A stretch of 10,011 bases of DNA from a virus (Duplodnaviria; Heunggongvirae; Uroviricota; Caudoviricetes), in the IMG/VR virus record IMGVR_UViG_2802429253_000016, positions 1 to 10,011 of that record. One strand, written 5' to 3'. The first letter of the stretch is position 1; each line of letters starts with the position of its first letter. This document shows, piece by piece, positions 1-10,011 of the stretch. Made by a program: the position numbers and the translations under genes. The notes under the pieces were generated by a model. The model had not been told where the DNA came from. It ran no database searches and saw only the letters and a program-made list of their open reading frames with translations.

Positions 1-582
1 TTAAACTCTGCGCTGAAATTTCTTTTTTTCATTGGAGCACCTGTGTTGTTCTGAGGTGAGCATATCACCTCTGTTCAGGTGGCCAAATTCAGTGTGCCAC
101 TTCAGATTGAACGCAGCAGCAAGACGGCTGGCGGTATAGTTAATCCCCTCGTTGCGTGCTTCCGCACGTACTTCAGCCAGGAAAGCATCGGTGGCTGGGG
201 TTTGCGGCATCCTTCCGTCTATTGCGCAGATATACGCATCAGATAGTTCATCCTGCTCGCCATCAAACACGTAGCAACTCTGTACGATAAATTTATTCAG
301 CCCCGCATTCTCCGCCGCAAGCGCAGCAAGATTAGTCTCCAGCTCTGCAATGCGTTTGCTTTGGGCTTCCCGTTCATCCAGCAGTGCCAGCACGGTAGCC
401 GGATTGGCTGCTGCTATGAATCGCTTATTGGCGCGATTATCTGGTCCTGAGCATGATGCTATGTAGTAATTTGCGTTCAGTCCGGCATCAGCAATTACCC
501 CATAGTAATCATCAGAACACCATTCGCCAGGGGTTGCATTTTCTGCCGCCATTCGCAGTGCCTGGTAATTAATGTTGCTCAC
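1..582 (-). CDS. Phage accessory protein, tentatively ead/Ea22-like (coiled-coil middle, conserved NATPGEW and NPATVLALLD segments)
   Basis: Six-frame ORF 1..609. The preferred start is GTG at 580-582, preceded by AGGAGG (589-594) with a 6-nt spacer; the ATG at 609 has no SD. Stop TAA at 1-3. Family assignment is from memory and unverified. Confidence 0.55.
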   Translation of the reverse strand: MSNINYQALRMAAENATPGEWCSDDYYGVIADAGLNANYYIASCSGPDNRANKRFIAAANPATVLALLDEREAQSKRIAELETNLAALAAENAGLNKFIVQSCYVFDGEQDELSDAYICAIDGRMPQTPATDAFLAEVRAEARNEGINYTASRLAAAFNLKWHTEFGHLNRGDMLTSEQHRCSNEKKKFQRRV

Positions 583-874
583 TGGTTGCCTCCTGAAAAA
601 TAACTGCATGCCCCAGCTTCTCCGCCAGTGCCAGTTCTGCCTTAGCGCCTGCTGACCGCTGCCAGCCTTTCAGCATGTAAATCGCATCCACACAACGAAT
701 CATTGCCATGCAAATATCCATGTAGTGTGGCTGTGTCAGTCCGTCCGGAAGTACTGCCGGACTTAAGACGGTATGCCCTTCCCGTTTCAGTTCCTCTTCC
801 GCCTTGTGGAACGCCTCACGGTTGAAATTTTTATACCCGGTCATCGGACCAGCGATATAAACCCTCACCCTCAC
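569..874 (-). CDS. DUF4406-like / nucleoside 2-deoxyribosyltransferase-like small protein (101 aa)
   Basis: ORF with GTG start at 872-874 overlapping the upstream stop (GTGA), AGGAGG at 883-888. N-terminal YIAGPMTG motif and a GW-x-S-x-GA segment are typical of the DUF4406/deoxyribosyltransferase-like fold. Assignment from memory. Confidence 0.6.
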   Translation of the reverse strand: MRVRVYIAGPMTGYKNFNREAFHKAEEELKREGHTVLSPAVLPDGLTQPHYMDICMAMIRCVDAIYMLKGWQRSAGAKAELALAEKLGHAVIFQEATSEQH

Positions 875-1287
875 GCCATCACCTCCTGAAAATTACCCTG
901 ATAAAACGCCAGCACACGCTGCATAACCTTGCTTTTCCGGCACTCGCGACAGATTATGTTCTGACGTCTGTCGTAGCGGCGTATCTCTCCATCTGGTAAT
1001 GAATAAATCAGGTCAGGATCGCTCTTTTTCTTCACCGCCGCTTTCGACATCTTTTCGATGGCTTTTATCCAGTCCTTACGCGCCTGCGCTGAAGGGAATA
1101 TTCCATACCCTGAACCATATACAACACCACTGGCTACCAGCTCTTTCGTCAGAACTTCTATCAGATGTCTCGTCGCCCCAATTTCATTTTCCAGTTGTTT
1201 ACGCGTTTTCCGACCATCTCTGCGTACCAGTTCCACAATGCGCGCCTTCACTTCTTCCCGCTGTTCGGAAGTAAAAACTTTTGCCAC
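871..1287 (-). CDS. Hypothetical phage protein (138 aa), basic, possible N-terminal winged-helix and a C-terminal CxxC
   Basis: ORF starting with GTG (1285-1287) 4 nt after AGGAGG (1292-1297). It is co-oriented and tightly packed with the replication gene; no family recognised. Confidence 0.55.
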   Translation of the reverse strand: MAKVFTSEQREEVKARIVELVRRDGRKTRKQLENEIGATRHLIEVLTKELVASGVVYGSGYGIFPSAQARKDWIKAIEKMSKAAVKKKSDPDLIYSLPDGEIRRYDRRQNIICRECRKSKVMQRVLAFYQGNFQEVMA

Positions 1288-1327
1288 AAGTCCTCCTGAA
1301 AATTACCTCATGATCTGAAATAAACAC

Positions 1328-2275
1328 TTACCCCCTGAAGCCCGGCGGAATTTCGGTATCCGGTTCAGAAATGTGATTCACGCAACGCTGTACAGGCGAA
1401 CGCCCCAGACGAATAACCAGCTCATCCCATTTTTCGCGAAGCTTTGACGGGCTCATGACGTTTTTTACCCAGAATGGATCCCGCTGTACCCGACCAAACA
1501 TTTCGCAAATTTGTCTGTGAGTTCTGCCATCCAGCATCCGCATTGTGCGCACATCATTGGCCCATGCAGTCCAGTTGGGTTCTTTCGGTCGCATGATTTC
1601 GCCATCATCGCTGGCAGCCTGCTCGTAAAGACTCACGATTCGTCCCCAGATCCACTGCGCACACGCTAAATCTTCCTGGCTACCCCACTGGCGTTTTTTC
1701 GCACTGAACACAACCGCGTCAGGGTGTCGGGTTAAAAAATCCTGTTCAGCCGTCTGCGAGTCCGGTTGCGAAGCTTCCGGACGAAAAGATCTTTTATCTG
1801 ACGGATCAGGTTTTAATACTGACGGATCGGGGCCAACCATCGCCCCCCTATCCGGCTGTTTTTTATCAATGGTTGATCCATCAAAATTTGAGGGGTCAAC
1901 CGTTGAGGGGGCAATATTTGACGGGTCATTTTTTGCCTGGCTAATTTTTCTTTTCGGTTTATATGCCTCACGCGCCGCCGCTGCTGCTGCTTCTAGTTTT
2001 TCCACATTAAGACGGTAGATATTGCTTACATTACGCCCACCGACCTTACGTTCCTCCTTCGTCAGCCAGCCGTTCTTTTCCAGTTCCGCTATCGCAGCTT
2101 TAACCGTTGATTCACTCTTTGCCCCAATCTGACGACGAATGGTCTCCACTGCAGGCCATGACACACCTTCGTCATTGCTGTAATCTGCAAGGCGAGCCAT
2201 TACTGCCACCCTGGATAAGATCATGCCGGTGAAGGCGCACCCTTCCCAGACAAGACCATGAAGCTTGCTGCTCAT
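1328..2275 (-). CDS. Replication initiation protein: N-terminal winged-helix domain, iteron-encoded linker, C-terminal DnaT-like (primosomal protein I-like) domain
   Basis: 315-aa ORF with ATG at 2275 and GGAG SD. The C-terminus ...VNHISEPDTEIPPGFRG matches the DnaT C-terminal signature as recalled. The internal iteron cluster plus AT-rich tract is the same arrangement as ori inside lambda O. The N-terminal wHTH resembles phage replication proteins. Confidence 0.85.
   Translation of the reverse strand: MSSKLHGLVWEGCAFTGMILSRVAVMARLADYSNDEGVSWPAVETIRRQIGAKSESTVKAAIAELEKNGWLTKEERKVGGRNVSNIYRLNVEKLEAAAAAAREAYKPKRKISQAKNDPSNIAPSTVDPSNFDGSTIDKKQPDRGAMVGPDPSVLKPDPSDKRSFRPEASQPDSQTAEQDFLTRHPDAVVFSAKKRQWGSQEDLACAQWIWGRIVSLYEQAASDDGEIMRPKEPNWTAWANDVRTMRMLDGRTHRQICEMFGRVQRDPFWVKNVMSPSKLREKWDELVIRLGRSPVQRCVNHISEPDTEIPPGFRG
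1796..1966. repeat. Origin-like iteron cluster (TGACGGATC-type 9-mers) followed by an AT-rich tract, embedded in the initiator gene
   Basis: Direct copies TGACGGATC (1799-1807, 1820-1828), TGAGGGGTC (1889-1897), TGAGGGGGC (1904-1912), TGACGGGTC (1919-1927), with 15-bp phasing for the last three, plus an inverted copy (1875-1883, gatccatca). Followed by ttttttgcctggctaatttttcttttcggtttatat (1928-1964). They encode the repeated DPS motifs in the protein linker. Confidence 0.7.
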
Positions 2276-2298
2276 AAAAAACTCCGAACACCGTGCTT

Positions 2299-2724
2299 TT
2301 AGTGCATCACCAGGGCATTTCCCGCCGGACCACCACGATTCATCTGATTGAAACCAGCGATCGCCACTGCGACAAAATCATCAGCGTCTCTCACCAGTCG
2401 TTCCCGCGTCTCCACCAGCTCCCGAAAATAGGCTGAACTGTGGCTGCGCATTCGGGCCACCAGCAGAGGTGGCATTGCTTTTTCGATCGCTGGTAACAAC
2501 GCCTGAATTTTTTTAACCGCATCAGGGGTGTCTTTCTCCACCCAGCGGAAAATCTTCTGAGTATTGCGAGCCAGGGCTTCTGGGTGTGAATCGTCGTACA
2601 GTTCCGGAAACGTCATACCCAGTTCAAAATAAGCCCGGGTTATTTCAGCTGCCGGAACTTTTTCTCCGTCCGGATGCGCCCAGGCATTCATCGCCATGCG
2701 GATGTGCTCATGCTTGATTTTCAT
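2299..2724 (-). CDS. YdaT-like protein (CII-type regulator analogue), 141 aa
   Basis: ORF immediately downstream of the cro-like gene with a 4-nt ATGA start/stop overlap at 2721-2724, the position occupied by cII in lambda and by ydaT in Rac-type prophages. Family call from memory. Confidence 0.65.
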   Translation of the reverse strand: MKIKHEHIRMAMNAWAHPDGEKVPAAEITRAYFELGMTFPELYDDSHPEALARNTQKIFRWVEKDTPDAVKKIQALLPAIEKAMPPLLVARMRSHSSAYFRELVETRERLVRDADDFVAVAIAGFNQMNRGGPAGNALVMH

Positions 2725-2948
2725 GAATCACTCTTCCTTTCGCTCTGAGTGGTATCCTTCTTTTTGTAAAGCTCTGGGTTCAAAGATAATTTTCCCTTGG
2801 AGTATGCAGCAGCTTCCGCAGCTCTCCCTTTCGGAACTATTTCACCGGGGCGCTTACGCCACATGTAAATAGCTTCGCGGGTTATCCCATAAAAATCAGC
2901 GACCCTCTGAACAGAGCCAAAAAACTGAACAAGTTCATCAACTCGCAT
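2721..2948 (-). CDS. Cro/DicC/YdaS-like small HTH regulator (75 aa)
   Basis: First gene of the leftward operon, divergent from the repressor. SD AGGAGG (2954-2959) 5 nt before ATG at 2948. Small, basic, HTH-like N-terminus. Confidence 0.75.
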   Translation of the reverse strand: MRVDELVQFFGSVQRVADFYGITREAIYMWRKRPGEIVPKGRAAEAAAYSKGKLSLNPELYKKKDTTQSERKSDS

Positions 2949-3044
2949 TTCACCCTCCTAAAATCTAAGTATTTTTAGATTACAGGATAATTTTTTTTAG
3001 GTCAATGCGATCTAAAATAATTTATATTCAACTCGCGGGAGAAA
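2949..3044. promoter_or_regulatory. Divergent immunity control region (oR-like) with 18-bp palindromic operators and pR/pRM-type promoters
   Basis: Operator ATCTAAGTATTTTTAGAT (2963-2980, perfect 6-6-6 palindrome) and ATCTAAAATAATTTATAT (3010-3027). On the minus strand TTGACC (3005-3000), a 17-nt spacer and TAATCT (2982-2977) form a candidate pR overlapping the first operator. TATATT at 3023-3028 is a candidate pRM -10. Confidence 0.6.
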
Positions 3045-3692
3045 ATGATGGAAAGCCTTGGCATCAGGCTTAAGAAACTCAGAAAAGATAAGGGACTCAC
3101 CCAAGTAGAACTGGGTAAGCTTTCAGGCGTGACTGGGGTTACTATAGGGTACTGGGAGAAAGATCTAAACGAACCCGGCAGCAAAGCTCTAAGTAAGTTA
3201 GCCCAAGCATTAGGAACTACTGAGTCCTATCTCCTGTATGGAGTATCGTCTCCTGAACTATCTTTTGTGCAGAGCAATCCAGGCACCAAGATCCCCTACT
3301 TTTCGTGGGGTGACGCGATTTCTTTCCTAATCTTAGAAGGAGAGAAAACAATGGGAAATGTCGATAGGATCACCACATTCTTTGATGTAGTGGAAGGTGA
3401 TTTTGCCGTTTCAATGCCTGATGACACTATGCATAACCCCTCAGGGTCGCCAAGTATCCCAGTTGGTGCCACTGTGATCCTAAGACCAGGAGAAAGTTAT
3501 AAAAATGGCAGTATCGTCGCTGTAATAGTTCCAGATCCTCTTACAAATGAACCGTCTATGACTATAAAAAAATTAGTTATTGATGGAAAACTTGTGTATT
3601 TAAGCCCTCTCAATCCGCGCTATCAATCATCCTTGCTTACGCCAGAGTGTAAAATTGTTGCCGTAGCAAAAGGTGTACAGTTCAACCTATAA
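3045..3692 (+). CDS. CI-type phage repressor: N-terminal XRE-family HTH plus C-terminal S24 (LexA-like) autopeptidase domain
   Basis: 215-aa ORF. N-terminus has an HTH (LTQVELGKLSGVTGVTIGYWE). C-terminus has VSM (Ser nucleophile context) and TIKKLVIDGKLVYLSPLNP, aligning with lambda CI GNSM and FKKLIRDSGQVFLQPLNP (Ser/Lys dyad). The second ATG at 3048 has better SD spacing (GGGAG 3037-3041). Confidence 0.9.
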   Translation: MMESLGIRLKKLRKDKGLTQVELGKLSGVTGVTIGYWEKDLNEPGSKALSKLAQALGTTESYLLYGVSSPELSFVQSNPGTKIPYFSWGDAISFLILEGEKTMGNVDRITTFFDVVEGDFAVSMPDDTMHNPSGSPSIPVGATVILRPGESYKNGSIVAVIVPDPLTNEPSMTIKKLVIDGKLVYLSPLNPRYQSSLLTPECKIVAVAKGVQFNL

Positions 3693-3713
3693 CCCTGCCA
3701 TGTTCTTGAACTT

Positions 3714-3740
3714 AAGGTCGGTTATGCCGACCTTTTTTTT
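3714..3740 (+). terminator. Rho-independent terminator downstream of the repressor gene
   Basis: Stem AAGGTCGG (3714-3721), loop TTATG, CCGACCTT (3727-3734), followed by TTTTTT (3735-3740). Confidence 0.75.
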
Positions 3741-3759
3741 AAATTAATTTAGATTCCTC

Positions 3760-3788
3760 TTGACTATAAAACTAAATACTTTTAGATT
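3760..3788 (+). promoter_or_regulatory. pL-like promoter with overlapping operator (oL-like)
   Basis: TTGACT (3760-3765), 17-nt spacer, TAGATT (3783-3788). Operator AACTAAATACTTTTAGAT (3770-3787) has the same 6-6-6 architecture as the oR sites. Confidence 0.5.
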
Positions 3789-3970
3789 TATTGCATGCCA
3801 ACCCATCCCGTCCCCACAGAATGCAGGGCAATACTTCGAGTTACCAGGCAGTGGTCAGGGGTTAAGTAGCCAGCCCGAGGCGTAAGAACATGACGGCAGG
3901 GTTCAACTTTAATAACTATGCAGCAGGTTTTTGTTCCGCTACCCCGGCGTTAAGGGGAAATGAGGTCAAC

Positions 3971-4126
3971 ATGGATACTATCGATCTTGGCAACAACGAA
4001 TCTCTGGTGTACGGCGTGTTTCCCAACCAGGACGGCACATTCACCGCGATGACGTATACCAAAAGCAAAACGTTTAAAACCGAAAATGGTGCCCGTCGCT
4101 GGCTGGAAAGAAACTCAGGTGAGTGA
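3971..4126 (+). CDS. ydfA: YdfA-like small protein (DUF1391), 51 aa
   Basis: Internal ATG at 3971 with GAGG (3962-3965) 5 nt upstream. The product MDTIDLGNNESLVYGVFPNQDGTFTAMTYTKSKTFKTENGARRWLERNSGE matches the Qin prophage YdfA as recalled. The longer ORF from 3890 lacks an SD. Confidence 0.75.
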   Translation: MDTIDLGNNESLVYGVFPNQDGTFTAMTYTKSKTFKTENGARRWLERNSGE

Positions 4127-4127
4127 T

Positions 4128-4256
4128 ATGGATTTCGACACAATCATGGAAAAGGCTTACGAAGAATACTTCGAAGGCCTTGCCGAAGGCGAAGAAGCTC
4201 TCAGCTTCAGTGAGTTTAAACAGGCGCTTTCCAGTTCGGCAAAATCTAACGGCTGA
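4128..4256 (+). CDS. ydfB: YdfB-like small protein, 42 aa (not in the supplied ORF track)
   Basis: ATG at 4128 two nt after the ydfA stop. It encodes MDFDTIMEKAYEEYFEGLAEGEEALSFSEFKQALSSSAKSNG, with stop TGA at 4254-4256. Length and position match Qin ydfB as recalled. Confidence 0.65.
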   Translation: MDFDTIMEKAYEEYFEGLAEGEEALSFSEFKQALSSSAKSNG

Positions 4257-4285
4257 TAAGCGAAACAGCACCGCGAGGAATCAGT

Positions 4286-4501
4286 ATGCAGAAACCAGAA
4301 CCCATCATCATCGCACCAGGCTATACCGATGATGAAATTTACGAATGGATGTGCGGGAAGATACGCGCCATTAATGACCTGAAGCAGGCTGCTGACTATA
4401 AAGAGCGCCTCTCTAAAGAACTGGCGTCAGCGGAGCAGGATATTACCACTCTGGCAAAAAGCGCGGCATTAAACGTTTCACGAGTGAATGAAAACTACTG
4501 A
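4286..4501 (+). CDS. ydfC: YdfC-like small protein, 71 aa
   Basis: ATG at 4286 with GAGGAA (4275-4280) 5 nt upstream; third gene of the dicB-type operon. Confidence 0.8.
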   Translation: MQKPEPIIIAPGYTDDEIYEWMCGKIRAINDLKQAADYKERLSKELASAEQDITTLAKSAALNVSRVNENY

Positions 4502-4516
4502 CTGATGAGGTTGACG

Positions 4517-4846
4517 ATGGAATTTAAAGATTTACCAATACCATTCCAGGAAATGGCAGCGAATATAGTTCGTTCCCAACTGGCGACTCTTGACCTGAGT
4601 ACCGTAGAAAAAGAAACCATCGATAATATATCCGGTAACGTGCGTCGCGCCTTTATCGGGTTGTACGAAGAGAAGCAACTCTCTGATAACCAGGATTTGC
4701 ATGAAAAATACTTCCTGGAATTAATGAACATCATTGATAAGGGGTTTGGCTTGTTAATGAAAAAGAAAGGGATTCGAATAGAACCCCTTGAAAATTACTT
4801 TGCAACAAAAAGCATTAATTCTTTTGATTCAAAACAAGAGAATTAA
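4517..4846 (+). CDS. Hypothetical protein (109 aa) in an AT-rich insertion; function unknown
   Basis: ATG at 4517 with GAGG (4507-4510) and a 6-nt spacer (the ORF track starts at 4505). Markedly AT-rich relative to flanking DNA. Its 3' end overlaps the convergent ORF by 32 nt. Confidence 0.5.
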   Translation: MEFKDLPIPFQEMAANIVRSQLATLDLSTVEKETIDNISGNVRRAFIGLYEEKQLSDNQDLHEKYFLELMNIIDKGFGLLMKKKGIRIEPLENYFATKSINSFDSKQEN

Positions 4847-5090
4847 TAACAGATTTAACATGCTCTTTCTCATGATTGAAGCTCTCATGATTGAAAGCGC
4901 CGGGTTGAAGCGAGTCGATATAATCAACAAGACTCTGTCGTACGACTTCATTTTTATCCATAACAGATGCAAGAAATGAAATTGCTAAAAGAGTTATATC
5001 ACTACGCGCCGCAGCATGCTGCAATGCTTTATCAAAATTATTAATCTGGCGTATCAGGGAGTTAATGATTTCATTATTTTCAGTCGACAT
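4815..5090 (-). CDS. Hypothetical protein (91 aa), antisense-oriented within the pL operon; function unknown
   Basis: ATG at 5088-5090 preceded by AGGAGGG (5096-5102) with a 5-nt spacer; this RBS context (AGGAGGGTGAAATG) is identical to that of the cro-like gene. The longer ORF to 5168 has no SD. AT-rich. Confidence 0.5.
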   Translation of the reverse strand: MSTENNEIINSLIRQINNFDKALQHAAARSDITLLAISFLASVMDKNEVVRQSLVDYIDSLQPGAFNHESFNHEKEHVKSVINSLVLNQKN

Positions 5091-5421
5091 TTCACCCTCC
5101 TGAGGGTTGGTGATTAAGGAGTTCTCCACGGGTGAGGTGGAGTGCGTGCGCCGGACACGGGTGAGCATCCGGCACTGACAGTTTACTGAAAGGATATATC
5201 CCTGAAAAGTCAGGGCATAACGCGAAAGCGCACGGCGAAGTTCTTCTGTCTATACGGTGTCGTTAAATTTAATTCGACCGTGCGCTTCCGGTTGTGGCAC
5301 TCCGCGAAATGGCGCGGCGGTAAGTATGGCGGGGTTATTCCTTCCCCGTTGAGGACACCGGGTTGTCAGGTTGACCATACGCTTAAGTGACACCCCCGCT
5401 GCAACGCCCTCTGTTATCAAT

Positions 5422-5477
5422 TTTCTGGTGACGTTTGGCGGCATCTGTTTGCCCATGAACTGATGCCCGCCCTTTTT
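5422..5477 (+). ncRNA. dicF: DicF-like small regulatory RNA with intrinsic terminator
   Basis: The 5' segment TTTCTGGTGACGTTTGGCGG matches the DicF 5' end as recalled. Hairpin GGCGGCATC (5437-5445) / GATGCCCGCC (5462-5471), then CTTTTT. It sits between ydfC and dicB, as in the Qin dicB operon. Confidence 0.7.
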
Positions 5478-5479
5478 AA

Positions 5480-5631
5480 AGTGAATTTTGTGATGCGGTG
5501 AATGCGGCTCAGCGCACGCGGAACAGTTAAAACCAAAAACAGTGTTATGGGTGGATTCTCTGTATCCGGCGTTAATTGTTAACTGGTTAACGTCACCTGG
5601 AGGCACCAGGCACCGCATCACAAAATTCATT
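5480..5631 (+). promoter_or_regulatory. Long-range RNA stem (about 20 bp) enclosing about 110 nt between DicF and the dicB RBS; candidate RNase III processing or translational control structure
   Basis: 5482-5500 tgaattttgtgatgcggtg is the exact reverse complement of 5611-5629 caccgcatcacaaaattca, extendable by a G-U and an A-U pair. The 3' arm ends 5 nt before the dicB SD (GAGGA, 5635-5639). Confidence 0.5.
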
Positions 5632-5646
5632 GTTGAGGACGCGATA

Positions 5647-5835
5647 ATGGAAACGTTATTACCAAACGTTAATACGTCTGAAGGTTGTTTTGAAATTGGT
5701 GTCAGAATCAGTAACTCTGCATTTACTGAAGATGCCATTAACAAGAGAAAACACGAACGGGAGTTATTAAATAAAATATGCATTCTTTCAATGCTGGCAC
5801 GTTTACGCCCGATGCAAAAAGGATGCTGGCAATGA
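5647..5835 (+). CDS. dicB: DicB cell-division inhibitor (62 aa)
   Basis: ATG at 5647 with GAGGA 7 nt upstream. The product METLLPNVNTSEGCFEIGV...NKICILSMLARLRPMQKGCWQ matches DicB as recalled. The ORF-track N-terminal extension from 5542 is non-coding leader. Confidence 0.85.
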   Translation: METLLPNVNTSEGCFEIGVRISNSAFTEDAINKRKHERELLNKICILSMLARLRPMQKGCWQ

Positions 5836-6035
5836 ATACAGCAATTGCTCTCACTCTGACAGTTTTTCTTAATACGGGCGAGCCTGTTGACCTGGTTATT
5901 GACATTTACGGTTCAATGAAAGAATGCACGGCTGCCGCAGCGGAACAGAAAATTCCCGGTAACTGTTATCCGGTTGATAAAGTTATTCATATGGACAATA
6001 ACGAAATCCCGGCAGGACTTAAAACAGCACCGTAA
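5832..6035 (+). CDS. ydfD: YdfD-like small protein (67 aa; prophage lysis-associated protein in K-12)
   Basis: ATG at 5832 overlaps the dicB stop (ATGA). The product MNTAIALTLTVFLNTGEPVDLVIDIYGSMKEC... matches YdfD as recalled. Confidence 0.7.
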   Translation: MNTAIALTLTVFLNTGEPVDLVIDIYGSMKECTAAAAEQKIPGNCYPVDKVIHMDNNEIPAGLKTAP

Positions 6036-6115
6036 TTAATATCCGGTTTCATTTTTATATGCCAGCAATGGCAGGGATTTGTTCACCCTTAAATCTGTAA
6101 TGAGGTTAAAACAAA

Positions 6116-8590
6116 ATGAGTAAAGTCTTTATTTGCGCCGCCATTCCGGACGAACAGGCAACAGCAGAAGGCGCTAAACCTGTGGCCACTGCCATTGAAG
6201 CAGGCGACGAACGCCGGGCAAGAGCCAAATTTAGCTGGTTATTTCTGGAACAATACCCGGAAACTCAGGACTGTGCTTATAAATTTCTTGTCTGCGAGGA
6301 TAAACCCGGCATGGCCCGCCCTGCTCTCGATTCCTGGGATTCCGAATATATGCAGGAAAACCGCTGGAATGAGGAGTCGGCTTCCTTTGTTCCGGTCGAC
6401 CCTGAACCGGATACAGAAACTGTTAACTTTAATCAGTTATCTGACGACAAGCGGGCTGCTGTCCTTGTCAGGTTCGGTACACATGAAAACATCACCGTGG
6501 ATATGGTCATCAATGCAAGCGGGCTTCTCGGCGATGACGAGATGACGACTTTTGATGGACACCTCACTGAAGCAGTTATCCGGACCAGAGAAATTAACGC
6601 CATGTATCCTGAGCGTCAGACTGAGTACATCAACGATGCCAGACGTGATTTAAAACCAACAGCCAAATGGCCCGATGTTCAGGCGTATTTTCTCGAACGT
6701 AAAAAACGCATGGAAAAGGAGCGCAAAGAAGGTGGAGCATATAATTCCGTCGTCGATCTTGCCCGCGCCAGAGTCAACCGGCAAGGCACTGAAAACTCTG
6801 CAGGAAAAACTGACTCCGTAACTGCTGTCATTCGTCGCGAATACAAGCAGACATGGAAAACACTGGATGGCGAACTGGCCTACGCTCTCTGGCCTGGTGA
6901 TGTGGATGCCGGAAACGTTAACGGCAGCATCCATCGCTGGGCAAAAAATGAAGTTATCGACAACGACCGCGAAGACTGGAAGCGTATCTCGGCATCAATG
7001 CGCAAACAGCCTGATGCCCTTCGCTACGACCGCCAGACTATTTTTGGCCTTGTCCGTGAACGTCCGATCGACATTCACAAAGACCCTGTGGCACTGAACA
7101 AATACATTACTGAATACCTGACTACAAAGGGCGTGTTTGAAGATGAAGGAAGAAATCAGAGCGCAACTGATACTCTCTCGTCGCCAGTACCAGAAACTGA
7201 TGCAGTGGAAACGGCAATTCCGGACAACGAAAAAACCGAATGCAAAGTGGAAGTCGAACCATCTGTAGAGCGTGAGGGGCCATTCTACTTCCTCTTCACC
7301 GACAAGGATGGCGAAAAATACGGTCGCGCAAACAAACTTTCTGGTCTGAATAAGGCGCTGGCTGCCGGGGCTACTGAAATCACGAAAGAAGAATATTTTG
7401 CCCGCAAAAACGGCACATACTCAGGTTCACAACAAAATACTGGTGCATCTGACACGACCGCACAACCAGAGCCGGTAAAAGTTACCGCTGACGAAGTAAA
7501 CAAAATTATGCAGGCAGTCAGCCAGCCTGACGCCAATCAGTTGCTTGCTGCCTCTCGCGGAGAATTTGTTGCAGGGATTAGCGACCCGAATGATCCGAAA
7601 TGGGTGAAGGGGATTGAAACCCGCGATTCTGTGTACCAGAACCAGCAAGAAACGGAACAGAACGACCAGAAAGCGGAACAAAACAGCCAAAATGCGTTAC
7701 AAAACGAGCCAGAAACGAAACAATCCGAACCAGTAGCGCAACAAGAACCAGAAAAAACCTGCACCGCCTGCGGTCAGAGCGGTGGCGGCAACTGCCCTGA
7801 TTGTGGCGCGGTGATGGGCAACGCAACATATCAGGAAACATTCGATGAAGAGAATCAGGTTGAAGTTCAGGAAAATGATCCGGAGGAAATGGAAGGCGCT
7901 GAACATCCACACAAGGGGGACACTAGCGGCGCTCAGGACCACGCCAGCGATAGTGAAACTGGTGAGGCGGCAGATCCCTTAATTAATGTGAATGGTCATC
8001 ATAAAAGCACATCCACCAGTAGAGTGTGGTACCACCTGATGATCGACCTTGAAACGATGGGTAAAAAAAGTAATGCCCCCATCGTGGTTATTGGTGCTGT
8101 GTTCTTCGATCCGCAGACCGGGGAAATCGGGCCAACATTTTATATCGTTATCAGCCTGGTTGACGCTATGGACACGGGTGCTGTACCTGATGGTTCCACC
8201 ATCGAATGGTGGCTTGCTCAGTCCAGCGAAGCCAGATCTGCAATTTTAGTTGATCAGGTAAAACTGGTTGACGCTCTTATTCAATTTCGGGAATTCATCA
8301 ATGAGTACTCGAATGAAAAATTCGTTCAGGTATGGGGCAATGGTGCAACTTTCGACAACACTATTTTACGAACCTCGTACGAACGCCTGAACATCCCCTG
8401 CCCGTGGCGTTACTACAACGATCGCGATGTACGTACAATCGTTGAACTGGGAAAAACTATCGACTTCGATGCCAGAACAGTTATTCCATTTGAAGGCGTG
8501 CGCCACCATGCGCTGGATGATGCCCGTCACCAGGCGAAATACGTTTCAGCAATCTGGCAAAAACTGATCCCGAATCAGGCTGATTTTTAA
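6116..8590 (+). CDS. Large RecE/YdfE-like protein (824 aa) with a Q/E-rich low-complexity linker, a CxxC-x10-CxxC knuckle and a C-terminal DEDDh (DnaQ-like) 3'-5' exonuclease domain
   Basis: Single uninterrupted ORF. C-terminal motifs: Exo I MIDLETMG, Exo II WGNGATFDNTIL, Exo III RHHALDDARHQAKY. The N-terminus MSKVFICAAIPDE... resembles Qin YdfE, and the middle LLAASRGEF...CTACGQSGGGNCPDCGAVMG segment resembles RecE, both as recalled. It sits where exo/recE sits in lambdoid phages. Confidence 0.85.
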   Translation: MSKVFICAAIPDEQATAEGAKPVATAIEAGDERRARAKFSWLFLEQYPETQDCAYKFLVCEDKPGMARPALDSWDSEYMQENRWNEESASFVPVDPEPDTETVNFNQLSDDKRAAVLVRFGTHENITVDMVINASGLLGDDEMTTFDGHLTEAVIRTREINAMYPERQTEYINDARRDLKPTAKWPDVQAYFLERKKRMEKERKEGGAYNSVVDLARARVNRQGTENSAGKTDSVTAVIRREYKQTWKTLDGELAYALWPGDVDAGNVNGSIHRWAKNEVIDNDREDWKRISASMRKQPDALRYDRQTIFGLVRERPIDIHKDPVALNKYITEYLTTKGVFEDEGRNQSATDTLSSPVPETDAVETAIPDNEKTECKVEVEPSVEREGPFYFLFTDKDGEKYGRANKLSGLNKALAAGATEITKEEYFARKNGTYSGSQQNTGASDTTAQPEPVKVTADEVNKIMQAVSQPDANQLLAASRGEFVAGISDPNDPKWVKGIETRDSVYQNQQETEQNDQKAEQNSQNALQNEPETKQSEPVAQQEPEKTCTACGQSGGGNCPDCGAVMGNATYQETFDEENQVEVQENDPEEMEGAEHPHKGDTSGAQDHASDSETGEAADPLINVNGHHKSTSTSRVWYHLMIDLETMGKKSNAPIVVIGAVFFDPQTGEIGPTFYIVISLVDAMDTGAVPDGSTIEWWLAQSSEARSAILVDQVKLVDALIQFREFINEYSNEKFVQVWGNGATFDNTILRTSYERLNIPCPWRYYNDRDVRTIVELGKTIDFDARTVIPFEGVRHHALDDARHQAKYVSAIWQKLIPNQADF

Positions 8591-8654
8591 TGTTCAACCC
8601 CGGTCGTCGCCCACCAGCTATAGTGGCGGCGACCATGATTAGCGAACGACGCTC

Positions 8655-8903
8655 ATGGCAAGACTTATTCTGCTCACTGAGTGGGCAAAAGAGGAATTCA
8701 GTGAACCGGTCCCTACTCCGGGTACGTTAAGTAAATACGCTAAAGCCGGAATGATATTTCCTCTCCCCAAAAAAGTAGGAAGGCACTGGCGAGTGGATCC
8801 ACGCGCTCGCTTTGTCGGAATGGTAAACAAGCCTGAGGTGATCGCCACAGATCACCCTGCTTTGAAGAGGATACTGGAAGATGGCGCGCCCGCGAAAATA
8901 TAA
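8655..8903 (+). CDS. xis: Excisionase (Xis-like, 82 aa)
   Basis: Small basic protein immediately upstream of, and overlapping, int by 23 nt. LILLTEWAKEE...IFPLPKKVGRHWRV parallels lambda Xis LTLQEWNARQ...IFPPPVKDGREY. Confidence 0.8.
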   Translation: MARLILLTEWAKEEFSEPVPTPGTLSKYAKAGMIFPLPKKVGRHWRVDPRARFVGMVNKPEVIATDHPALKRILEDGAPAKI

Positions 8904-10011
8904 AACCGATGTTCCGGGTTTATCTCCGTATTTTGACAAAAGAAATAACAAAGTTTACTGGCGTTACAGGCATCCCATCACAGGTAAAAATCATGGACTC
9001 GGCAGTATTGACCAGAAACTGGCGGAAACCATTGCAGCAGAAGCGAACAGCCGTCTTGCCAGACAAAAAATGGAGCAAATGCTCAGTCTGCAGGAGAAAA
9101 TTATTAGTGATACCGGCGGCGCATCAACCGTTTCCATTTTTCTGAATAATTACAGAAAAATTCAACAGGAAAGATATGAGAACGGAGAAATCAAGCTCAG
9201 CACGCTGAAACAAAAAGCGGCTCCTCTCAGGGTGTTTGATGAACGTTTTGGAGCCAGGCCGCTAGATGCCATAACCGTAAAAGATGTGGTATCGGTGCTG
9301 GAAGAATACAAGGCAAAGGGACATAACAGAATGGGACAAATTTTCAGGAAGGTATTGATCGATGTTTTCCGGGAGGCTCAACAAACGGGTGATGTCCCGC
9401 CAGGCTTTAACCCGGCTGAATCGGCAAAAAAACCGCAAGTGCGGATATCAAGACAGCGACTGACTTTTGATGAGTGGATGATGATTTATAACGCAGCGGA
9501 AAAGGATGGTTACTTTTTACAGCGCGGCATGCTGCTGGCACTGATGACGGGCCAGCGTCTTTCGGATATTTGCAAAATGCAGTTTTCGGATATCCGGGAT
9601 GGTTACCTTCATGTCGAACAGCAAAAAACAGGAGCCCGGATAGCCATTCCTCTGGCTCTGCGTTGCGACAAATTAAATCTTACCCTGGGTGACGTGGTGT
9701 CATCCTGTCGTGATTACATCCTTAGTCCGTGGTTATTGCACCATCATCACGCTAAGGGGATGGGTAAGCGCGGCGGGATGGTTAAACCAGCAACGTTAAC
9801 AGTCGCATTTAAAAAAGCCCGGGATTCTGTGGATTACAACTGGCGTGCTAATGGCACGCCACCCTCTTTCCATGAGCAAAGATCTTTATCAGAACGATTG
9901 TTCAGAGAACAGGGAATTGATACCAAAATTTTGCTGGGCCATTCGAATCAAAAAATGACCGATATTTACAACGACGCACGCGGTAAAGAGTGGAAAAAAC
10001 TGGTTGTTTGA
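8881..10011 (+). CDS. int: Lambda-family tyrosine integrase (376 aa), apparently intact
   Basis: Collinear with lambda Int. N-terminal arm-binding region (YFDKRNNKVYWRYRHPITGK), TGQRLSDI (Arg), HEQRSLSERLF (His, Arg), LLGHSNQKMTDIY (His, Tyr nucleophile), and a C-terminal GKEWKK tail. Stop TGA at 10009-10011. Confidence 0.95.
   Translation: MARPRKYKTDVPGLSPYFDKRNNKVYWRYRHPITGKNHGLGSIDQKLAETIAAEANSRLARQKMEQMLSLQEKIISDTGGASTVSIFLNNYRKIQQERYENGEIKLSTLKQKAAPLRVFDERFGARPLDAITVKDVVSVLEEYKAKGHNRMGQIFRKVLIDVFREAQQTGDVPPGFNPAESAKKPQVRISRQRLTFDEWMMIYNAAEKDGYFLQRGMLLALMTGQRLSDICKMQFSDIRDGYLHVEQQKTGARIAIPLALRCDKLNLTLGDVVSSCRDYILSPWLLHHHHAKGMGKRGGMVKPATLTVAFKKARDSVDYNWRANGTPPSFHEQRSLSERLFREQGIDTKILLGHSNQKMTDIYNDARGKEWKKLVV

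Follow-up and report, generated by a model that had tools for sequence, protein, structure and literature searches.

A 16-nt box repeated before three consecutive GTG-initiated genes in a lambdoid prophage of Escherichia

Three boxes and the genes behind them

The DNA analyzed here, which we call the window, is a stretch of 10,011 nucleotides (nt) from a Caudoviricetes record of IMG/VR (IMGVR_UViG_2802429253_000016, positions 1 to 10,011), and one end of it carries three consecutive small genes on the minus strand, each preceded by a copy of a 16-nt box. Read along that strand, the genes are lygF (871..1287, 138 amino acids), a gene encoding a nucleoside 2-deoxyribosyltransferase-like DUF4406 protein (569..874, 101 amino acids) and an Ead/Ea22-like gene (1..582, below Ea22; identified from the list of open reading frames (ORFs), a family search and the Prokaryotic Genome Annotation Pipeline (PGAP) annotation of a relative). 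The ORFs match the families DUF977, DUF4406 and Ead_Ea22, respectively, and all of them open with GTG. LygF, whose PHROG assignment is PHROG 142 (“Ren-like exclusion protein”), ends in ...FYQGNFQEVMA with the stop codon TGA at 873-871, and the C-terminal end of the DUF4406 protein is ...GHAVIFQEATSEQH. Directly upstream of lygF and its box lies the gene of an O-like replication initiator or replisome organizer (1328..2275, minus strand, stop codon at 1330-1328).

A first-pass annotation made from the sequence alone had drawn attention to the boxes, and reading of the minus strand together with a mismatch search confirmed three copies, two of them exact GGTAATTTTCAGGAGG and one GTTATTTTTCAGGAGG, with two mismatches. 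Box 1 (1292..1307, AGGAGG at 1297-1292) is situated in the intergenic leader of lygF and is separated from GTG 1287 by the 4-nt spacer ACTT. Box 2 lies within the last codons of lygF at 882..897, two bases away from the annotated 884-899, and is followed by the 7-nt spacer TGATGGC and GTG 874. Box 3 (589..604) lies in the 3' end of the DUF4406 gene, with the 6-nt spacer CAACCA before GTG 582. The positions of boxes 1 and 3, the spacing of 4-7 nt and the placement of two copies in the 3' coding end of the upstream gene and one between genes had thus been given correctly. The description of both upstream proteins as ending in FQE is approximate, as LygF ends in ...GNFQEVMA and the DUF4406 protein in ...VIFQEATSEQH. 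Box 2 is read in lygF as GGT AAT TTT CAG GAG G (G-N-F-Q-E) and box 3 in DUF4406 as GTT ATT TTT CAG GAG G (V-I-F-Q-E); LygF proteins usually have the tail GNFQE, regardless of which leader precedes the gene. The right half of box 3, together with the spacer CAACCA and GTGAGC, is a leader found on Ea22-family genes elsewhere.

At up to three mismatches, four matches to the box were found in the window compared to 0.09 expected from shuffled sequences, and none of 200 shuffles reached four. A repeat search returned the boxes as the top direct-repeat family of the window. The fourth match (AGTAATTTTCAAGGGG, 4799-4784, minus strand, 13/16) is not followed by a start codon and falls within an ORF of the plus strand (4505-4846), and it was judged to be a chance occurrence. 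Local alignments of the flanks (60 nt upstream and 40 nt downstream) gave no significant similarity beyond the 16-mer (p = 0.09 to 0.95 against shuffles), and a longer duplicated segment around the boxes was therefore rejected. A derivation of box 1 as the relic of a second lygF-like 3' end found no alignment support, and LygF shows no relationship to the small “DNA-binding protein” encoded ahead of DUF4406 in other prophages. Box 1 is overlapped by a three-codon mini-ORF, ATG AGG TAA (1303..1311, minus strand), which contains the rare codon AGG, has no obvious Shine-Dalgarno (SD) sequence of its own and is mostly conserved in related loci; it recalls the two-codon bar minigenes of phage lambda.

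All three boxes contain an exact AGGAGG, complementary to the 3' end of the 16S rRNA. At boxes 2 and 3 the upstream gene runs into the downstream one, the stop codon of lygF and the start codon of DUF4406 overlapping as GTGA (874-871), and DUF4406 and Ea22 overlapping by 14 nt (582-569). At box 1, 40 nt after the stop codon of the O-like gene, stop and start neither overlap nor abut.

The same three GTG starts appear in the PGAP annotation of a 98% identical E. coli locus. Many lygF homologues carry ATG at exactly the position of the start codon (MAKVFT..., MVKVFT...), Ea22 homologues occur with ATG at the position of GTG 582, and some homologues have GTA in place of the second DUF4406 GTG (868). 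These comparisons support the predicted starts at 1287, 874, and 582, as had been annotated. A start of Ea22 at ATG 609, raised in the first-pass annotation as the alternative, was not borne out, this ATG being missing upstream of Ea22 homologues that sit behind other genes; the conserved N-terminus, VSxINYQAL, is preceded by sequence that is not conserved. Three GTG codons in succession had been considered unusual. They are real, but they do not represent an independent oddity, because they follow from the conserved GTGA overlap of stop and start. The DUF4406 gene begins with GTG AGG GTG AGG (863-874, minus strand), a tandem GTGAGG with two rare AGG codons among the first four codons, of which at least one homologue has a single copy.

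The folding of 96-nt segments around the boxes was compared with that of shuffled sequences, and with z-scores of -0.40, +1.49, and +0.10 none went beyond them. A scan of the window against Rfam (E <= 1) gave no match at the boxes, the sole matches being DicF-like and STnc100-like sequences at 5423-5679, and neither a promoter-like or terminator-like site nor a stable hairpin was found at any box. A structured cis-regulatory RNA (riboswitch, leader, or thermometer) was rejected for lack of a fold signal and of an Rfam family at the boxes, and a promoter/terminator cassette for lack of such sites. No X XXY YYZ heptamer lies between AGGAGG and the stop codon, and the downstream ORFs each have their own conserved start, so that a programmed frameshift site was dismissed as well. 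The same applies to an attC-like site for site-specific recombination; there is no hairpin, and the only integrase is of the lambda type, encoded at 8881-10011, about 7.5 kb away.

Constraint, partners, and breakpoints in related prophages

The comparison covered more than 200 related Escherichia/Shigella prophage loci; partners and contexts were tallied from the listed matches, and the tallies are lower bounds. More than 120 IMG/VR prophage contigs contain the exact 16-mer, in every case at lygF, and in many related prophages it occupies both positions, those of boxes 1 and 2. A set of species-representative genomes yielded 19 matches to the 16-mer followed by GTG within 4-7 nt, among which only those of E. 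coli, Shigella flexneri, and two Collinsella contigs look real. The latter (L276 and L265 of the metagenome-assembled genome Collinsella sp. MAG B663_006) carry the E. coli lygF box, in one case as two copies about 420 nt apart, and they most likely represent contamination of the bin by an Escherichia prophage. In the literature on lygF and the junction we found only the naming of lygF in the Salmonella Sdf region, and no description of the box.

Upstream of lygF, four contexts were distinguished. Behind the O-like gene, lygF has the box as its leader, and behind a DnaC/YdaV-like gene with GTG AAG TAA at its end it has AAGTAATTTCAGGAGG; the third context has GGTGATTTTTCAGGAGG, and after a DUF1627/ydaW gene an unrelated leader, TGATTGCCGGAGGCGCTT, is found with an ATG start. 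Across other prophages the box 1 leader was found behind three different upstream contexts and was replaced in the fourth. In other contexts, the GTAATTT of the box leader forms the stop-codon region of a YdaV-like gene. The DUF1627/ydaW gene is itself preceded by a leader, GAAGTAATTTT(GT/TA)CCGG(A)GG AAATTTTA ATG, which has GTAATTTT in common with the box (loci L281 380-436, L282 380-436, and L121 2180-2234), and at these loci GTAATTTT constitutes the stop-codon region of the YdaV-like gene in front.

The 3' end of lygF falls into two classes, one with the box followed by a GTGA gene and one ending in ...FYQGDVRYLLK without the box, and the two diverge at TTTTATCAGGG, the first base of the box. 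Box 2 was found with at least four families of partners (DUF4406, several Ea22 variants, a methyltransferase-like gene, and an unknown VSESKC gene), and the DUF4406 box with at least five (Ea22 variants, DUF4752, and three unknown families). Ea22-family genes also show a second conserved junction, ...CAGAT(T/C)CG(C/T)AAAGGAGGCAACCA GTGAG, read as ...IRKGGNQ and a stop. It was seen at L121 4350-4400, L175 2470-2515, L176 2470-2515, L208, and L237, and recurs before different genes in early-left and early-right operons.

Junction 2 was analyzed for constraint in 56 distinct sequences from the 3' end of lygF. None of them deviated in GTGA or in the third base of the codons TTT and CAG, compared to a mean third-position conservation of 82% over the 60 nt before. 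Conservation was 68% at the third base of GGT and 89% at that of AAT, the first bases of the box thus being variable, and the spacer after box 2 varied as well. The constrained core is apparently about ATTTTCAGGAGG plus GTGA, and not the whole 16-mer. The copy in DUF4406 varies at synonymous sites (GTT/GTG, TTC/TTT), its commonest form being GTTATTTTCCAGGAGG, and distant DUF4406 proteins of Klebsiella, Proteus, and Vibrio phages have an equivalent hydrophobic strand at their end. Because of this synonymous variation and the equivalent strand, the left half of box 3 is native coding sequence, namely the V-I-F codons of DUF4406. Conservation at the nucleotide rather than the protein level, as proposed in the first-pass annotation, therefore holds for the U-rich tract with the SD sequence and for box 1 compared with box 2 only, but not for the left half of box 3.

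Breakpoints of homology were read from 40 matches spread by rank over 2,034 matching E. coli genomes. Of 24 internal match starts in this sample, 21 mapped to box 1, to the start of lygF, to the bases right after box 2, or to box 3; all internal match ends mapped to the box 2 zone, to the final base of box 3, or to a point 15 nt beyond that base, and only three breakpoints fell inside gene bodies. Those at box 1 lay at its SD sequence. On the query, matches ended at 45, 443-471, 464/467, and 747/752, the places of boxes 1-3. Phage matches started or ended at the same places as the E. coli matches, and the stop codon of the O-like gene (1330-1328) was another breakpoint. The search for the 16-mer across related prophages, proposed in the first-pass annotation, showed accordingly that the edges of the box mark swaps of neighboring genes, where homology breaks. 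With breakpoints on the boxes in both the phage and the E. coli collections, and one box adjoining many unrelated partners, the suggested role as a junction for modular exchange gained support.

Two lygF 3' alleles, which differ up to 6 nt before the box, were each found with VSAPAT, VSQINN, and VSEISY genes. This four-gamete pattern places repeated crossovers within about 30 nt that include the box. The tails of DUF4406 proteins after FQE (ANSE, ATSEQH, EVQ, KTQ, and TASVQD, each followed by a stop) are read-through of the leader of the following gene, and unrelated phages have AGGAGGCAACCAGTGAGC as the Ea22 leader in their early-left operons, with the reading K-G-G-N-Q-stop. Since the tails are leader read-through and AGGAGGCAACCAGTGAGC leads Ea22 in unrelated contexts, the DUF4406-Ea22 joint of the window is probably a hybrid formed at or beside AGGAGG, and the joint would have changed the reading frame of the tail. 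Such a hybrid joint fits short-homology or microhomology recombination; a designed adaptor fits less well.

The surrounding prophage

The minus strand of the window carries the early-right operon of a lambdoid prophage, with lygF, DUF4406, and Ea22 at its distal end. Upstream of the O-like gene it carries a YdaT-family gene (2724-2299) and a cro-like gene (2948-2721). The plus strand encodes a cI-like repressor (3045-3692), DUF1391 and DUF1482 genes, an excisionase and, at the prophage end, the lambda-type integrase. From the gene content on both strands (repressor, DicF-like RNA, integrase, and others) the element is a Qin/Rac-type prophage of Escherichia, and the best match of the window is the chromosomal locus in E. 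coli VTB97432v mentioned above as 98% identical. Between the O-like gene and Ea22 the promoter and terminator scan found a single weak terminator-like site, inside lygF, and no promoter-like site; the genes from the O-like gene through Ea22 would form one operon. Solved structures for LygF and DUF4406 were looked for, and nothing useful was found.

A DicF-like antisense RNA (5423-5472, plus strand; 35.9 bits against a gathering score of 48, E = 6e-5) is followed by an STnc100-like small RNA (5470-5679, plus strand; 37.7 bits against a gathering score of 47, E = 2e-5), and both overlap a minus-strand ORF (5250-5783) that is probably spurious. This pair, although below the Rfam threshold in both cases, suggests an early-left region of the Qin/dicB type. 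Two 21-nt near-palindromes flank the cI-like gene (AAATCTAAGTATTTTTAGATT and AAAACTAAATACTTTTAGATT, at 2961-2981 and 3768-3788) and look like right and left operator sites. An 824-amino-acid protein (6116-8590, plus strand) occupies the place of recE in Rac; its first 640 residues have no Pfam match, and its C-terminal part (residues 640-814) is an Rv2179c-like 3'-5' exoribonuclease domain. RecET was considered as a local recombinase and rejected, since this ORF has the exoribonuclease domain only and no RecE or RecT was seen in the window.

Translation initiation, recombination, and competing explanations

We consider it probable that the box is a translation initiation region, consisting of a U-rich tract and AGGAGG, which is common to three consecutive small accessory genes and whose copies arose through recombination at the SD sequence. 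A U-rich tract and a perfect AGGAGG 4-7 nt before GTG would act as a strong start signal of presumably high efficiency, and a strong SD sequence would compensate for the weak GTG start codon. The leader of phage T7 gene 10 is an A/U-rich translational enhancer upstream of the SD sequence. The box resembles this type of enhancer, as judged from sequence alone, in the U-rich run directly 5' of a strong SD sequence and in the invariant third-position T of TTT; it differs in that the U-run, TTTTC in lygF, is for the most part TTTCC in the copy within DUF4406.

Because two copies of the box lie within the last codons of the preceding gene, ribosomes finishing lygF would stop at the start of DUF4406, on the TGA that overlaps its GTG, and those finishing DUF4406 would stop 14 nt inside Ea22. 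Coupling of this kind would be classical translational coupling, which had been one of the suggestions of the first-pass annotation. The consensus SD sequence, the spacing, and the GTGA and 14-nt overlaps argue for it, while box 1 is uncoupled. Ordinary coupled junctions, with the SD sequence in the upstream 3' end and an ATGA or GTGA overlap, are matched by the boxes in the distance of 4-7 nt to the start, the overlaps, the unstructured sequence, and the location within one operon. They differ from the locus described here in two respects: box 1 stands apart, 40 nt after the O-like stop, and one and the same extended sequence recurs from junction to junction, something that ordinary coupling can do without.

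As regards their origin, the box copies would descend from common junction sequences and not from separate function. The SD sequence with a few flanking bases would be the only sequence common to otherwise unrelated junctions, and repeated short-homology or microhomology recombination at the SD sequence would shuffle the flanking genes. Several results weigh against this explanation. GGTAAT is not conserved across homologues, so function alone does not account for the 16/16 identity of boxes 1 and 2, which needs a specific duplication or conversion event. No viral contig combined the context of box 1 with a GTGA gene other than lygF, and the joint predicted from a lygF deletion between boxes 1 and 2 (an O-box-DUF4406 chimera) was not seen, the top 25 E. 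coli matches all being intact two-piece matches. Furthermore, the boxes coincide with gene boundaries, and the clustering of breakpoints alone does not tell whether recombination took place at the box or joints arose at random and were then filtered by selection at these boundaries; and 16 bases are short for efficient homologous recombination.

The same observations can be read as the work of a dedicated recombination linker, that is a selected, frame-compatible stop-start adaptor (TTT-CAG-GAG-G, N7, GTGA) that makes accessory genes exchangeable cassettes. Both lygF and DUF4406 are flanked by box copies, which are read in the same F-Q-E frame in two unrelated proteins, the partners are many and show the four-gamete pattern, and the VSESKC gene was found after lygF, after DUF4406, and after Ea22. 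In lambdoid phages, short conserved flanking sequences that allow module exchange have been mentioned with a citation of Clark et al. 2001 on HK620 (PMC2327257). To the extent that they are described there, such boundary or linker sequences share with the box a short sequence at junctions with differing flanking genes, coincidence with breakpoints, and reticulate combinations of alleles, but the box is only about 11-16 nt long, is essentially a ribosome-binding site, and lies partly inside coding sequence. Differing flanks, coincident breakpoints, and independent assortment were all found for the boxes, and recombination products were not. Shuffling mediated by the T4-type PeSL, an early promoter with a terminator stem-loop and thus a pair of transcription signals, provides a documented precedent, as recombination products including mini-circles have been shown physically (PMC2839356, PMC4122927). 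The likeness is one of logic only, repeated short expression signals flanking non-essential genes of variable regions and serving as sites of modular shuffling, whereas the signal of the box is translational. A PeSL-type mobile regulatory cassette was rejected for the boxes, which have no sigma-70 promoter-like or terminator site and no stable hairpin.

If the box were such an adaptor, it would create cassettes independent of a recombinase, in which any gene ending in ...F-Q-E could be placed before any leader-bearing gene with both termination and coupled initiation kept, a translational counterpart of the T4-type transcription cassettes. We nevertheless regard a selected adaptor as unlikely. 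Clean box-to-box products were found neither among the viral contigs nor among the top 25 E. coli matches. The spacers differ by junction type and several joints alter the frame of the upstream tail, which points to accident followed by tolerance rather than to design. Conservation is lacking in the left part of the box, the exact 16-mer before GTG is confined to Escherichia/Shigella, and, with the SD sequence already under selection for translation, an extra selection is needless.

A trans-acting translational regulator, protein or small RNA, that binds the box and coordinates lygF, DUF4406, and Ea22 in the manner of T4 RegA or RegB might be expected where three co-transcribed genes have a common extended ribosome-binding context and the same prophage encodes a DicF-like RNA. 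However, no sequence complementary to the box within 3 mismatches is present on either strand of the window, and pairing of the DicF-like RNA with the boxes was rejected, as the duplex energies (-26.3 to -34.4 kcal/mol) lay within the background (mean -28.6, standard deviation 4.8) in what is a crude and weak test. Bases outside the U-rich tract and the SD sequence vary, including the first 3-4 of the box, many lygF homologues have the leader TGATTGCCGGAGGCGCTT with ATG instead of the upstream box, and some lack the box at the 3' end. With no Rfam match and no structure at the boxes either, such a regulator seems very improbable, and the dedicated regulatory element envisaged in the first-pass annotation was not supported. 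Even harder to credit is a chance or purely convergent likeness of three strong ribosome-binding sites. The window shows no enrichment of AGGAGG by itself (6 found, 3.3 expected) and native DUF4406 codons explain the left half of box 3, but an exact 16-mer pair and a 14/16 copy stand against 0.09 expected matches, six further identical bases beyond the common TTTCAGGAGG have by simple arithmetic a probability of about 1/4096, and the same 16-mer recurs at both positions in many related prophages. Chance was therefore rejected for boxes 1 and 2 and is possible only for the left half of box 3.

A translation initiation region copied by recombination at the SD sequence, our preferred explanation, does not make the box a new type of element; it is real, but an ordinary phage feature. 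For annotation, the GTG starts can be taken as correct, and whatever follows FQE in the proteins should be regarded as encoded by the junction. The locus illustrates clearly how mosaic joints originate in temperate phages, with joints that fall on a common ribosome-binding site, and it supports the idea that some phage mosaicism results from recombination at very short common expression signals and not from random joints alone.

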